Shown here: piece by piece, positions 32,212-51,112 of the stretch
How the letters are laid out: every line of letters starts with the position of its first letter
Position numbering within the stretch: position 1 is the stretch's first letter
NCBI GenBank assembly: GCA_045577965.1
Contig: JAZNJI010000002.1
Coordinates: forward strand, 4,323 to 68,322
DNA from: Paludibacteraceae bacterium
GTDB taxonomy: Bacteria; Bacteroidota; Bacteroidia; Bacteroidales; Paludibacteraceae
Reading direction: 5' to 3'
DNA length: 64,000 nt
Notes under the pieces: model-generated
The model's input: only the letters and a program-made list of their open reading frames with translations
Told to the model about the DNA's origin: nothing
Databases searched by the model: none
Program-made: the position numbers and the translations under genes

Positions 32212-32300
32212 CCCATATTAGGCGAAGCCGTCCAATACCCATTAGGCGGAACGCCGTCCATTACCCATTAGGCGAAGCCGTCCAATAGCGAAGCGTCCAC
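32212..32300. repeat. word-array / mini-hairpin repeat
   Basis: attaggcgaagccgtccaataccc attaggcggaacgccgtccattaccc attaggcgaagccgtccaatagc gaagcgtcc. Confidence 0.85.
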
Positions 32301-46126: not shown

Positions 46127-47119
46127 ATGCGAGGACTAGTTATAAAATCTACTGGTACGAGTTACGGCGTACACTTCGAGGACGGAACAACCGCCGAATG
46201 TCATGTCAAGGGCAATTTCCGCATTCGTGGTATTCGCTCTACTAACCCTATTGCCATAGGCGACCATGTTGAGGTGACGCAACTAGAGGACGGTACCAAT
46301 TGGATCACCGAACTATACGACCGCAAAAACTACATCATCCGCCGCTCCACCAACCTGAGCTATGCCTCACATATCATAGCAGCCAATGTAGATATGGCGG
46401 CATTGATCGTCACACTCCGTCACCCCGAGACATCAACCACCTTTATTGATCGCTTCCTAGCGACCTGCGAAGCTTATCGCGTGCCCGCGTGCATAATATT
46501 TAATAAGGTGGATCTGCTCACCGAAGATGAACTGGAGCAACTATCTACCCTCCGCCAATTATACGAGTCATTGGGCTATCCTACCTACGCTATCTCTGCA
46601 ATAACCCTCACTTCTTCGCCTGATAGCCCAATCGCCCAATCGCCTAATCACCTCATCTCTGCCATCTTTGATGGCAAAGTTACTCTCCTCTCTGGCAATT
46701 CTGGCGTAGGAAAATCTACCCTTTTGAACGCCATTTTAGGCAAAGATGTTGCTCGAACAGGCGCCATCTCCTCTGCCCACCACAAGGGTATGCACACCAC
46801 CACCTTCTCCGAGATGTACCCGCTACACAACACTACACAACACTACACAACACTACACAACACTACCCCACATTCCTGGCTCATCGACACCCCAGGCATC
46901 AAGGGATTTGGTCTGCTAGACATTGAAAAAGAGGAAGTAGGGCACTATTTCCGAGAGATTTTTGAGGTAGCACGCGAATGCCGCTACTCCAACTGCTTGC
47001 ACACGGGCGAGCCTGGATGTGCGGTATATCAAGCAGTGGTAGATGGCAAGATCGCCCTCTCACGCTACGAGAGTTACCTCAGTATCCTAGACGACACCAA
47101 CGAAGGGAAGTATCGTTGA
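46127..47119 (+). CDS. rsgA: ribosome small-subunit-dependent GTPase A
   Basis: OB-fold N terminus, NKVDL, GNSGVGKSTLLNAI, DTPG and Zn knuckle CRYSNCLHTGEPGCAV are present. It contains two in-frame word arrays. Confidence 0.88.
   Translation: MRGLVIKSTGTSYGVHFEDGTTAECHVKGNFRIRGIRSTNPIAIGDHVEVTQLEDGTNWITELYDRKNYIIRRSTNLSYASHIIAANVDMAALIVTLRHPETSTTFIDRFLATCEAYRVPACIIFNKVDLLTEDELEQLSTLRQLYESLGYPTYAISAITLTSSPDSPIAQSPNHLISAIFDGKVTLLSGNSGVGKSTLLNAILGKDVARTGAISSAHHKGMHTTTFSEMYPLHNTTQHYTTLHNTTPHSWLIDTPGIKGFGLLDIEKEEVGHYFREIFEVARECRYSNCLHTGEPGCAVYQAVVDGKIALSRYESYLSILDDTNEGKYR
46614..46652 (+). repeat. in-frame word array inside rsgA
   Basis: cttcgcctgatagcccaatcgcccaatcgcctaatcacc encodes SSPDSPIAQSPNH. 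Confidence 0.7.
46823..46869 (+). repeat. in-frame 10-nt-period word array inside rsgA
   Basis: The unit ctacacaaca is repeated 4 times, followed by ctacccc. It encodes LHNTTQHYTTLHNTTP between the conserved HTTT..E and IDTPG blocks. Confidence 0.85.
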
Positions 47120-48139: not shown

Positions 48140-48186
48140 AGATGCAAAAAAAATAATGACTATTTGCATAAATGCAAAAAAAATAC

Positions 48187-48194
48187 TACCTTTG
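48187..48194 (+). promoter_or_regulatory. -7 box TACCTTTG for recA
   Basis: Preceded by tttgcataaatgcaaaaaaaa. The leader is a G-poor word array. Confidence 0.75.
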
Positions 48195-48206
48195 CAGTCG
48201 CGTTAG

Positions 48207-48255
48207 TAATACAACGCTACACAACACAACACTAACCATTCTAAACAACACTACT
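48207..48255. repeat. G-poor word array forming the recA leader
   Basis: taatacaacgctacacaacacaacactaaccattctaaacaacactact, followed directly by ATG. Confidence 0.8.
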
Positions 48256-49263
48256 ATGGCTGAAGAAAAGAAAAATCCGTCCGTAGAGAAACTCAAGGCA
48301 TTGCAACTCGCAATGGAAAAAATTGATAAGCAATTTGGTAAAGGCGCCATCATGAAATTGGGTGATGACAAAGTAGAAGATGTACCTGTAATACCATCTG
48401 GTTCAGTAGGTCTCAACGTCGCACTCGGCGTAGGCGGTTACCCTCGCGGACGTATCGTAGAGATTTATGGTCCAGAGTCTTCTGGTAAAACCACCCTCGC
48501 CATCCATGCTATGGCAGAGGTGCAAAAGCAAGGCGGTATCGCTGCTATCATCGATGCCGAGCACGCATTCGACCGCTTCTATGCAGAGAAACTAGGAGTC
48601 AACACCAACGACTTGCTCATCGCCCAACCAGACTGCGGCGAGCAAGCACTCGACATTGCAGACGAACTCATCCGCAGTGCGGCAGTGGACCTTGTAGTCA
48701 TCGACTCTGTAGCTGCCCTCACCCCAAAAGCTGAGATTGAAGGCGATATGGGCGACAACAAAGTGGGTCTGCATGCGCGACTCATGTCGCAAGCGCTCCG
48801 CAAACTGACAGCTACCATCAACAAGACCAACACCACCTGTATCTTTATTAACCAGTTGCGTGAAAAGATTGGCGTGATGTTTGGTAACCCAGAGACCACA
48901 ACGGGTGGTAACGCGCTGAAGTTCTATGCTTCAGTTCGCCTCGACATTCGCAAATCTACCGCTATTAAGGACGGAGACGAGATTCTTGGTAACCAAGTTC
49001 GCGTGAAAGTCATCAAGAATAAGGTGGCTCCTCCATTCAAGAAAGCGGAGTTCGACCTCATGTTCAACGAAGGTATCTCTCGCGTAGGCGAACTCGTGGA
49101 TATGGGTGTAGAGAAAGGTGTCTTGACCAAGTCTGGCTCATGGTATAGCTACGAGGGCAACAAACTTGCTCAAGGTCGCGATGCGGCTAAGAACGTTCTC
49201 CGCGACAACCCAGACCTCGCCGAAGAGATCGAGAACAAGATCATGGAAGCGCTGAAGAAATAG
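48256..49263 (+). CDS. recA: recombinase RecA
   Basis: [29 protein letters not shown] and [28 protein letters not shown] are present. The track start at 48172 runs through the promoter and a word array. Confidence 0.96.
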
Positions 49264-49440
49264 TCGCTGAGCGACGTAAATGGCGGCAAAGCCGCGAAAA
49301 TGGTCTTCGACGAAAATGGCACCTCTGGTACGAAAATGGTCTTCGACGTAAATTACGTGAAACCACTTTCGTGAGCAAAGCGAGCCACTTTCATGAACGA
49401 AGTGAATCACTTTCGTGAGCGATAGCGAACCATTTAACAT
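49264..49440. repeat. word-array / hairpin repeat downstream of recA
   Basis: The palindrome gtcgctgagcgac, (g)aaaatgg words and cactttcgtgagc..agcga units are present. It is related to 29451-29640. Confidence 0.85.
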
Positions 49441-51031
49441 GAACGAAGTGAACCAAACAACTCTCATATTATCCCCTGAGAAAGCTTACGACGCGGAGCA
49501 ACGCTACCGCGTCGTAAAGCGTTCTATTGATGCCCGCCAGCGTGCGCTCAAGGTCCACCTCACCGTACTTACCGACGAGCATGGTGCACCACTGCCCAAG
49601 GATGCACCTATCCCGCTGTACGAGCCACCACATTTCCAAGATGTACACAACGCCGAGCATAGTGTGGCTATCATCGGCGCAGGCCCGGCGGGCCTATTTG
49701 CTGCGCTCACGCTCATTGAACACGGCATCCGTCCAATCATCTACGAGCGTGGTAAAGAGGTTGCTGAGCGCAAGAAGGACATCGCCACGCTCAACCGTAA
49801 TCAGGGGCTGAATGCCGAGTCCAACTACTGCTTTGGCGAAGGCGGTGCAGGTACTTTCTCCGATGGCAAACTCTTCTCACGTAGCAAGAAACGCGGCAAT
49901 ATGCAACGCGTCATGGAGCTCTTCCACCATTTCGGTGGTGACGACCGCCTATTGTATGAAGCCCATGCCCATATCGGTAGCGACCGCCTGCCCACCATCA
50001 TCCGCCGCATGCGCGAGTGCATCCTCGAACATGGTGGCGAGATCCACTTCTCTACCTGCGTAGATGAACAACTCTTCCGTAGCCTTATCGCCAATAGCCA
50101 ATATCCAATAGGCGGAACGCCGTCCAATAGCCCGTTAGGGCGTCCTGCCCTCTTGGGCGTCATCCTCGCCATTGGTCACTCCGCACATGATACCTACCAC
50201 ATGCTGCATGCCAACGGTGTTGCCCTGGCAACAAAAGGTTTCGCTATGGGCGTGCGCGCAGAGCACCCACAGGCGCTGATCAATAAACTGATGTACCACG
50301 ATCCATCGCCCGAACTCATCCGTTTGGTAGGCAATGCTTCGTATTCGTTGGTGACGCAGGTGCAAGGTCGTGGTGTTTATTCCTTCTGTATGTGCCCAGG
50401 CGGACATATCGTCCCAGCAGGCAGTGCGCTGAATAGTTGTGTAGTTAATGGTATGTCTGCCAGCCACCGCAACTCTCCATACGCCAATTCGGGTATGGTC
50501 GTAGAAATTCGTCCCGAAGACTTGCTCGTCAATAACAATACTACACCACACTACACAATTCTACACCATACTACCCCTGCTCTTGCAGGCCTAACATTCC
50601 AGCAAGAGCTCGAACGCCTTGCCTTTGAATACGGTGGCGAACCATCCTTAGCTCCTGCTCAACGCTTACGCGATTTCGTGGAGGGCAAGGCAAGTAAGAC
50701 GCTACCTGCATGTAGCTATCTGCCAGGCACGGTGTCCAGCCGCCTTGACCAATGGTTACCCGAACATATCGGCAAACGCTTGCAACAGGGATTCCGCGAT
50801 TTCGACCGCAAATATCGAGGTTTCTTGACCAACGAAGCCGTTATCCTTGGCGTAGAGAGCCGCAGTAGTAGCGCTGTGCGTATTCCTCGCGATCCCGAGA
50901 CACTGCAATCTATATCCACGCCTCACCTTTATCCTTGTGGTGAAGGAGCAGGCTACGCAGGCGGCATCACCTCCTCCGCACTCGACGGCATCAATGTCGC
51001 CCTCAAAATCGCCGAACGCATTACCCACTAA
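49439..51031 (+). CDS. FAD-dependent oxidoreductase (COG2509-like)
   Basis: VAIIGAGPAGLFAAL dinucleotide fold and CFGEGGAGTFSDGKL are present. It contains two in-frame word arrays. The track start at 49415 lies in an array. Confidence 0.75.
   Translation: MNEVNQTTLILSPEKAYDAEQRYRVVKRSIDARQRALKVHLTVLTDEHGAPLPKDAPIPLYEPPHFQDVHNAEHSVAIIGAGPAGLFAALTLIEHGIRPIIYERGKEVAERKKDIATLNRNQGLNAESNYCFGEGGAGTFSDGKLFSRSKKRGNMQRVMELFHHFGGDDRLLYEAHAHIGSDRLPTIIRRMRECILEHGGEIHFSTCVDEQLFRSLIANSQYPIGGTPSNSPLGRPALLGVILAIGHSAHDTYHMLHANGVALATKGFAMGVRAEHPQALINKLMYHDPSPELIRLVGNASYSLVTQVQGRGVYSFCMCPGGHIVPAGSALNSCVVNGMSASHRNSPYANSGMVVEIRPEDLLVNNNTTPHYTILHHTTPALAGLTFQQELERLAFEYGGEPSLAPAQRLRDFVEGKASKTLPACSYLPGTVSSRLDQWLPEHIGKRLQQGFRDFDRKYRGFLTNEAVILGVESRSSSAVRIPRDPETLQSISTPHLYPCGEGAGYAGGITSSALDGINVALKIAERITH
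50084..50145 (+). repeat. in-frame word-array/mini-hairpin insertion inside the FAD oxidoreductase gene
   Basis: cttatcgccaatagccaatatccaataggcggaacgccgtccaatagcccgttagggcgtcc uses the same words as the intergenic array at 32212-32300. Confidence 0.8.
50530..50577 (+). repeat. in-frame G-free word array inside the FAD oxidoreductase gene
   Basis: caataacaatactacaccacactacacaattctacaccatactacccc encodes NNNTTPHYTILHHTTP. Confidence 0.8.
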
Positions 51032-51112
51032 CCACCCTACGCAACACAACACTACACTATACTACCCTACACTACACTATACTACACCACACTACACAAT
51101 ACTACACAACCC
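51030..51112. repeat. G-free word array forming the tcdA leader
   Basis: accaccctacgcaacacaacactacactatactaccctacactacactatactacaccacactacacaatactacacaaccc. Confidence 0.9.

Follow-up and report, generated by a model that had tools for sequence, protein, structure and literature searches.

In-frame copies of dispersed short repeats at two sites in the gene of an FAD-dependent protein from a Paludibacteraceae bacterium

Results

Two repeat segments in the gene of an FAD-dependent protein

We analyzed a stretch of 64,000 nucleotides (the window) of a Paludibacteraceae bacterium (GenBank assembly GCA_045577965.1, contig JAZNJI010000002.1, positions 4,323 to 68,322), focusing on a gene for a flavin adenine dinucleotide (FAD)-dependent protein that carries repeat DNA at two sites. 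The host gene was located on the + strand at 49439-51031, with recA on one side and a ThiF-family gene on the other, and encoded 530 amino acids. The listed open reading frame (ORF), 49415-51031, began at a GTG at 49415, and the ATG at 49439 was the likeliest true start. In a Pfam scan, the protein matched PF21688 (FAD-depend_C) with E = 3.7e-65 over profile positions 2-197 of 197. The Rossmann FAD-binding motif GAGPAG was found at residues 80-85. The protein also matched PDB entry 3NLC (E = 5.8e-94), the structure of the uncharacterised Vibrio parahaemolyticus protein VP0956. The FAD motif, the C domain and the 3NLC fold identified the host gene as one for a PF21688/VP0956-type FAD-dependent protein. 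Because the Pfam scan detected neither a signal peptide nor a membrane domain, the protein is probably cytoplasmic. With both sites masked, the median values across eleven DNA sequences were 0.033 for nonsynonymous divergence (dN), 0.856 for synonymous divergence (dS) and 0.042 for dN/dS. These values indicated strong purifying selection on the gene outside the two sites.

The original prediction was that an FAD-dependent oxidoreductase contained two in-frame arrays, the first matching an intergenic array and the second free of G. Both segments were present and in frame in the PF21688 protein, and only their ends had to be moved by one base (50084-50146 rather than 50145 at site 1, and 50531-50578 rather than 50530-50577 at site 2). 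The site 1 segment was LIANSQYPIGGTPSNSPLGRP. It contained the insert at 50090-50146 (+ strand), translated as ANSQYPIGGTPSNSPLGRP, which was built of CCAATAG and CCAATAT words and two mini-hairpins and was named family A. Direct reading of the sequence placed the first mini-hairpin, GGCG-GAA-CGCC (GGCGGAACGCC), at 50111-50121, followed by GTCC. The second, CCC-GTTA-GGG (CCCGTTAGGG), was at 50131-50140 and was followed by a CGTCC tag, the whole module covering 50131-50145. The layout was words, hairpin 1, another word and hairpin 2, with (C)GTCC after each hairpin. The claimed match to the intergenic array at 32212-32300 (+ strand) also held. This family A array (Tandem Repeats Finder (TRF) period 26, 2.9 copies, 32217-32287) contained the same GGCG-GAA-CGCC hairpin at 32246-32256. 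The 21-mer TAGGCGGAACGCCGTCCAATA of site 1 was found again at 32243-32263 with one mismatch, where shuffled sequences gave an expectation of 0.00. In other copies of family A, the position of the second hairpin was occupied by different hairpins, GCGAAGC, CCCAACGGG or CCGCAGGG, followed by CGTCC.

The site 2 insert (50531-50578, + strand), named family B or the ACTACAC family, was an array of YACTACACNN words with a 10-bp period. This segment, translated as NNNTTPHYTILHHTTP, contained no G and was in frame. TRF gave a period of 10 with 3.7 copies and 77-90% matches, which meant that the units were imperfect. A G-free run of about 50 nt was not significant by itself; the 10-bp periodicity and the family membership were. 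For the two-unit pattern ACTACACNNYACTACAC, 13 matches were counted in the window where chance predicted 0.01, and every one was on the + strand. They included an array at 51044-51107, just past the host stop, and an array in rsgA at 46823-46866, which TRF reported as a perfect repeat.

Structure prediction with and without the inserts

Structures were predicted for the host protein, in which the inserts lay in the stretches ...YPIGGTPSNSPLGR... and ...TTPHYTILHHTTPALAGL..., and for a natural relative with a short site 1 and an empty site 2 (P0114), as the original prediction had proposed as a check. Both AlphaFold2 models were built on the same 71-sequence alignment. The model of the host protein had a mean predicted local distance difference test score (pLDDT) of 88 and a predicted template modelling score of 0.90. 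Its best PDB match in Foldseek was 3NLC, with a template modelling score of 0.80 and E = 1.3e-44. In blocks of ten residues, pLDDT fell to 62 and 75 over site 1, with 92 and 86 in the adjoining blocks. Over site 2 it fell to 69 and 75, with 94 and 93 in the adjoining blocks. The dips occurred only at the inserts. In the case of P0114, no dip was seen and pLDDT was at least 85 through both regions. The two models showed the same order of secondary-structure elements. The predictions agreed with inserts that are flexible surface excursions on an unchanged core.

State of the two sites in more distant homologs

An alignment of orthologs showed that 3NLC and the other genera of the family carry neither insert. 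At site 1, the other genera and 60 further relatives, nearly all of them Bacteroidota, had a canonical strand-turn-strand with the consensus ..GV....G.......VILATGHSA, and this beta-hairpin corresponded to LHMEDGQITGVTLSNGEEIKSRH in 3NLC. At site 2, the same homologs had a short loop (..Y..YG.LAGL.FQ). The array was missing from L001-L003 and from 3NLC, whose alignment showed a 14-residue gap at this position. Relatives that shared an insert shared it at the nucleotide level. This supported the claim that repeats of the intergenic type lie inside the gene, as homologs did not share the segments as protein independently of the DNA repeat.

The reading of the segments as insertions had to be modified. 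The two segments were repeat copies in frame, as claimed, but a simple insertion did not describe site 1. All sampled members of the window's genus had lost the canonical hairpin and had short unrelated sequences instead (L012-L015). Since the genus had already lost the hairpin, site 1 is better described, from the comparison of sequences, as a loop that was left by an older deletion and has since been refilled than as an insertion into an intact structure. Because the enzyme without the hairpin was still under strong purifying selection, the canonical beta-hairpin of the FAD domain appears to be dispensable in this genus.

In the case of site 2, inserts were also found in unrelated Bacteroidales, and some of these were word arrays (L042, L066, L090). 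Site 2 is an insertion hotspot well beyond the window's genus. The L042 insert had CCAACCATCC words with GCGAAGC and GCGCAGC modules. In L066, GACAATGGACAGT words stood opposite their reverse complement TGTCAATTGTCAAC, and TGTCAAY words were found in both L090 and L066. L080, another unrelated Bacteroidales, likewise had its own insert in this loop. Immediately 3' of site 2, the codons for P-L-A-G form a small natural hairpin.

Alternative fillings and spacers in close relatives

Close relatives were taken as the 120 listed best-scoring matches of a protein search, which were 88-97% identical to the query outside the sites (most of them 94-97%). The DNA around the host gene was examined for ten of these (L001-L010). 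At least seven unrelated sequence types were found at each site among the 120 listed relatives, and site 2 was empty (L-x-DQDP-LAGL) in about a third of them. The fillings of site 2 were ACTACAC words, the family A module in the same frame as at site 1 (QYPIGGTPSNSQYP), CCATTACC words with GCGAAGC and CCGCAGGG hairpins, ATAGTTCAAN words, GGAGTTCA words, a CCCTCCC-TTCAA-GGGAGGG hairpin and other sequences. Site 1 contained family A, ACTACAC words, CCGATAGC words, GGTCCAACAG words with GCGAAGC hairpins or a short SSPHRHIAT. The family A module thus occupied site 1 in some lineages and site 2 in others. A third dispersed module, with the hairpin CCCTCCC-TTSAA-GGGAGGG, was observed at site 1 in L003 and at site 2 in L010. 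Every filling in the DNA of the ten relatives used the word-array and mini-hairpin grammar of the spacers around the gene. Length variants of one array were found among relatives, such as a 5-residue deletion in P0084. All variants seen among the 120 listed relatives, which are the best-scoring matches only, were in frame.

The spacers on both sides of the host gene were themselves present, absent or different between lineages. In the window, word and hairpin arrays of a different word family, detected by TRF at 49272-49452 (+ strand), filled the spacer between recA and the host gene and reached into the listed ORF at its 5' end. The window, L002, L006 and L010 had CGACGTAAATGG / GAAAATGGTCTTCG hairpin words in this spacer. 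The words were quite different in L005 (ATCTACAG with hairpins) and L008 (ATCTAACAG with hairpins). In L001, L003 and L009, the spacer was missing and the recA stop was 2 nt from the gene start. On the other side, the ACTACAC-family array at 51044-51107 (+ strand), found by pattern matches and TRF, lay between the host stop and the ThiF-family gene. Its spacer was missing in L002, L003, L005, L006 and L009, where the two genes were 0-8 nt apart.

Adjacent arrays shared 9-mers 47 times, against 21.1 ± 4.4 in label-shuffled arrays. The sites and the adjoining spacer carried the same words in several lineages. This was the case in L004, in L005 and in the window, where site 2 had the words of the spacer 3' of the stop. 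Because neighbouring arrays shared 9-mers at about twice the expectation and the sites and spacer had the same words, short-range copying occurs alongside long-range dispersal.

The host genes of the relatives were only 84-88% identical in DNA, with dS of about 0.85. This ruled out that the 94-97% identical proteins came from strains of the same species, and it indicated that the compared relatives are related lineages or species. Identity along the gene was a mosaic of 72-100%, with a background of 85-90% and other tracts of 95-100%. Tracts around fillings common to two lineages were 94-100% identical. This pattern points to homologous recombination that moves loop alleles between lineages. 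Nucleotide constraint on the inserts at the level of the repeat was considered and rejected, as recombination better accounts for a mosaic gene that has further tracts of 95-100%.

Dispersal of the repeats in the genome and genus

The window's own genome (G000) has 2.2 Mb in 36 contigs and is 99.5% complete. At least six unlinked loci of this genome, most of them inside other genes, matched the core of site 1 exactly over 28-35 nt. The core of site 2 showed 24-29 nt of exact identity with unlinked arrays, including the variable 4-nt spacers between the CTACAC words. A 17-mer of family A had 16 copies in the genome with at most one mismatch. Eleven of these lay within called ORFs belonging to unrelated genes, and one of the eleven (C9) was at the extreme 5' end of its ORF. 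The 17-mer had no copy in five other species of the genus. Another 115 genomes of the family nearly lacked it as well, as two of them had a single match each, with one mismatch. The three-unit CTACAC pattern had 126 matches in the genome. Of 24 congeners, 8 carried it, each with between 2 and about 150 matches, and 16 genomes from 16 other families of the order had none. From these counts, both repeat families are lineage-specific and patchy within the genus. A phage origin was rejected, as the family A 17-mer had only two exact matches in IMG/VR, both without flanking words and attributable to chance. The CTACAC x4 pattern had 26 IMG/VR matches, which were scattered over contigs, giant-virus records among them.

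In-frame arrays were not special to the host gene. TRF detected 785 short tandem arrays in the genome (354 per Mb), 486 of which were in or overlapped the approximately 10% of non-coding DNA. Another 217 were deep inside long ORFs, 125 of these with periods that were not multiples of three. In-frame arrays are a genome-wide phenomenon, with about 200 such cases in this genome. The periods peaked at 7, 10-11, 14 and 20-22 bp. The peaks at 10-11 and 20-22 bp correspond to one and two helical turns of DNA, and curvature of the DNA or phased binding of proteins might lie behind them.

A non-triplet array runs through all three frames, so that any stop trinucleotide in its word would keep it from surviving in an ORF. 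In the case of the CTACAC arrays, all three sense frames were open and all antisense frames were closed, and 15 of 15 loci in ORFs were in the sense orientation. The G-free appearance of the site 2 array is explained by this stop filter, which admits only stop-free words in the sense orientation. In the case of family A, one of three sense frames and two antisense frames were open. The peptide PIGGTPSNS recurred in family A only, at both sites and in other genes, because the other sense frames contain stops. Variability inside the family A insert was unexceptional, as 40 of 435 windows elsewhere in the protein were equally variable.

The shared arrays also affected gene calls and homology searches. 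The longest ORF of recA began 5' of the real start and ran through an ACTACAC-type array at 48172-48260. Over-extension of recA by gene callers is possible there, and the calls in relatives gave a RecA of 335 amino acids. A search of the genome with the host protein matched an unrelated locus, G000:C23:537-704, at residues 328-390 with E = 1.2e-4. This match was spurious because both sequences merely contain the same ACTACAC array. Shared arrays are thus a source of spurious homology in such genomes.

Discussion

Translated passengers in permissive loops

We consider it likely that dispersed repeats persist in permissive loops of the host protein as translated passengers. The two segments would be copies of the lineage's dispersed repeats, one a word module with CGTC-tagged mini-hairpins and the other a 10-bp word array. 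They would have been copied at the DNA level into two places of the gene that tolerate extra residues. After translation, they would form flexible loop extensions rich in Pro, Thr, Ser, Asn and His, without a role of their own. Selection would act only as a filter, and an insert would be kept if it lies in a permissive surface loop, has a length divisible by three and introduces no stop codon in the reading frame that it occupies. Lineages would hold different fillings from one repertoire, and homologous recombination would shuffle the alleles. Instead of transposition, the copying might involve a template switch linked to replication or repair, or else short-patch recombination, with slippage altering the copy number afterwards. 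This route is our best guess, and we place it well below an even chance.

Several observations weigh against this explanation or limit it. When the DNA of relatives was compared, the insert junctions showed no inverted terminal repeats, target-site duplications or clear boundaries. Targeting by mini-hairpins was tested and failed as a general rule. Arrays and matched controls had values of 0.18 and 0.16, respectively, in coding DNA and of 0.20 and 0.17 in non-coding DNA, in a test that used GC-rich 4-bp stems and by definition missed GCGAAGC-type stems of 2-3 bp. Family A was in the sense orientation in 10 of 10 clear copies inside ORFs, although the antisense strand has more open frames. The stop filter fails to explain this bias, since two antisense frames are open against one sense frame. 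The bias could come from a loop-friendly sense peptide, that is, selection at the peptide level, or from a strand-specific copying step. The turnover of fillings need not be fast, because the relatives are only 84-88% identical in DNA. In addition, translation of the inserts is indirectly deduced, from the intact frame and the purifying selection, and we infer their functional neutrality.

Comparison with known repeat systems

The closest functional analogue of the inserts is the Rickettsia palindromic element (RPE; Ogata et al. 2000/2002). As summarised in PMC10969869 and PMC3733652, RPE are dispersed repeats found in frame in many housekeeping genes at fold-compatible positions. They are described there as single palindromic units of approximately 100-150 bp that also occur between genes and have no known transposase. 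The inserts were likewise multi-copy, dispersed and found both between genes and in frame in unrelated ORFs, and the models suggested that insertion is compatible with the host fold, as for RPE. However, the RPE palindrome has a conserved peptide, whereas the inserts were only 48-57 nt long with mini-hairpins of 3-4 bp. The units here measured 25-60 nt and combined tandem 7-11-nt words with 3-4-bp mini-hairpins, and one loop held many alternative fillings in related lineages. The hosts also differ, as RPE belong to an obligate intracellular bacterium and the present repeats to free-living gut Bacteroidales.

The CGTC-tagged repetitive extragenic palindromes (REPs) of Di Nocera et al. (2013) have a hairpin with an unpaired CGTC tag, occur in Bacteroidetes among other phyla, are in some cases intragenic and have no dedicated transposase (PMC3733652). 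Their families have 8-9-bp stems and 4-5-nt loops, mostly as head-to-head dimers, and the superfamily includes RPE-4 and RPE-6 (PMC3733652). Family A similarly had stem-loops with this tag (GGCGGAACGCC-GTCC and CCCGTTAGGG-CGTCC, and GCGAAGC-GTCC in other copies). In contrast, its stems were 3-4 bp and its loops 3-4 nt, in direct orientation and alternating with CCAATAG words. We did not file family A as a member because its stems are far shorter than the defining 8-9 bp.

In the case of long simple sequence repeats (LSSR; Mrazek 2007) and the short tandemly repeated repetitive sequences (STRR) of cyanobacteria, such as TAACTGA heptamer arrays, the summary in PMC4679880 describes tandem arrays of 7-11-nt units that are very abundant in a few lineages and mostly intergenic. 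It also states that stop codons dictate the orientation inside ORFs and that coding-region repeats in LSSR surveys mostly have units that are multiples of three. Site 2, with a period of 10 and 3.7 copies, resembled these arrays, and such arrays were abundant genome-wide and mostly intergenic. However, 125 of the 217 arrays inside ORFs were non-triplet, and arrays were combined with hairpin modules. Small dispersed repeats are said to have been found nested in Nostoc heptamer arrays by Elhai and colleagues in 2008. The tandem repeats of Borgs (Schoelmerich et al. 2023) lie both in ORFs and between genes, form disordered protein segments and recur at hotspots in homologs (PMC9879509). The present arrays were similarly pervasive, in ORFs and between genes, with recurring hotspots. 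In Borg ORFs, all unit lengths are divisible by three and the repeats are perfect and nearly all sequence-unique, hence locally formed (PMC9879509). In contrast, the units at site 2 were non-triplet (period 10), imperfect and identical over 24-29 nt to unlinked arrays. A literature search found no paper on such repeats in Paludibacteraceae.

Other explanations

Growth in place by replication slippage of local sequence, as in microsatellites and without copying from elsewhere, would account for the tandem structure, the period of 10 and the in-frame length variants such as that of P0084. Slippage is the classical explanation for 5-11-nt repeats in the summary of Mrazek (2007) given in PMC4679880. 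However, exact identity of 28-35 nt, with variable spacers and a specific hairpin included, ties the inserts to unlinked loci in unrelated genes, and the same module was found at site 1 or site 2 depending on the lineage. Slippage can alter the copy number after arrival and cannot explain the origin. This explanation is largely refuted by the exact identity, and we give it very little credence. Another proposal is that the site 2 array is a contingency switch, in which one 10-bp unit gained or lost would shift the frame of the gene. The period is not a multiple of three, and the same word family forms a perfect repeat in rsgA (46823-46866). At site 2, the units are imperfect, and the variants seen among the 120 listed best-scoring relatives are all in frame. 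We give such a switch a very low probability.

Movement of miniature elements of the REP, REPIN or miniature inverted-repeat type by a transposase would fit a dispersed, multi-copy and lineage-specific family whose CGTC-tagged hairpins resemble the superfamily that includes the Rickettsia elements RPE-4 and RPE-6 (PMC3733652). We consider this explanation unlikely. No match to the Y1 (IS200/IS605-type) transposase PF01797 was found in the genome, 99.5% complete, whereas 6 of 14 control genomes scored; the search did not extend to other transposase families. In this respect, the inserts differed from REP and REPIN elements mobilised by REP-associated tyrosine transposases (RAYT). The junctions had no terminal inverted repeats or target-site duplications, the stems were 3-4 bp against 8-9 bp in CGTC REPs, and CGTC REPs themselves have no known transposase. 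The reverse transcriptase PF00078 likewise had no match in this genome, and control genomes scored. Machinery of the RAYT type or of the diversity-generating retroelement type was ruled out by the missing matches to PF01797 and PF00078. Six genes for PF05635 four-helix-bundle proteins were present in the genome, and no link between them and the two inserts was found.

It is also conceivable that the loops are selected for variability or function, such as altered partner binding or escape from an inhibitor, with the repeats as the means of diversification. Two sites with many unrelated alleles on a highly conserved background would suit this idea, and so would the site 2 inserts in unrelated Bacteroidales. 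However, the protein is probably cytoplasmic according to the Pfam scan, alleles without inserts are common, the same repeats fill nearby non-coding spacers and more than 200 other ORFs of the genome carry such arrays. The variability of the family A insert is not unusual either (40 of 435 windows elsewhere are equal). Selection of this kind is thus very unlikely.

Implications

A bolder possibility, which we regard as doubtful, is active copying by a host-encoded process that needs no transposase. In this Paludibacteraceae clade, and in gut and rumen Bacteroidales at large, such a process would place short word arrays and mini-hairpin modules at new sites, including coding loops, in a strand-specific manner. 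If this were true, permissive loops of housekeeping enzymes would be repeatedly refilled hotspots, and the repeats would represent a mutational mechanism not described before, as well as a natural test, on a large scale, of how proteins tolerate changes in their loops.

The phenomenon as such has been described in other bacteria before, so the gain is incremental. The host gene offers a well-controlled example of repeat DNA turned into protein: a homolog has a solved structure, a natural allele lacks the inserts and each loop has at least seven fillings. The allelic series, on a protein background that is 94-97% identical, is suited to testing how far a flavoenzyme tolerates foreign loop sequence. 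The presence of the same modules at different sites in different lineages could help to trace how the repeats are copied. For annotation, these results serve as a warning that length differences and low-complexity loops in Bacteroidales proteins often come from DNA repeats rather than from functional domains.

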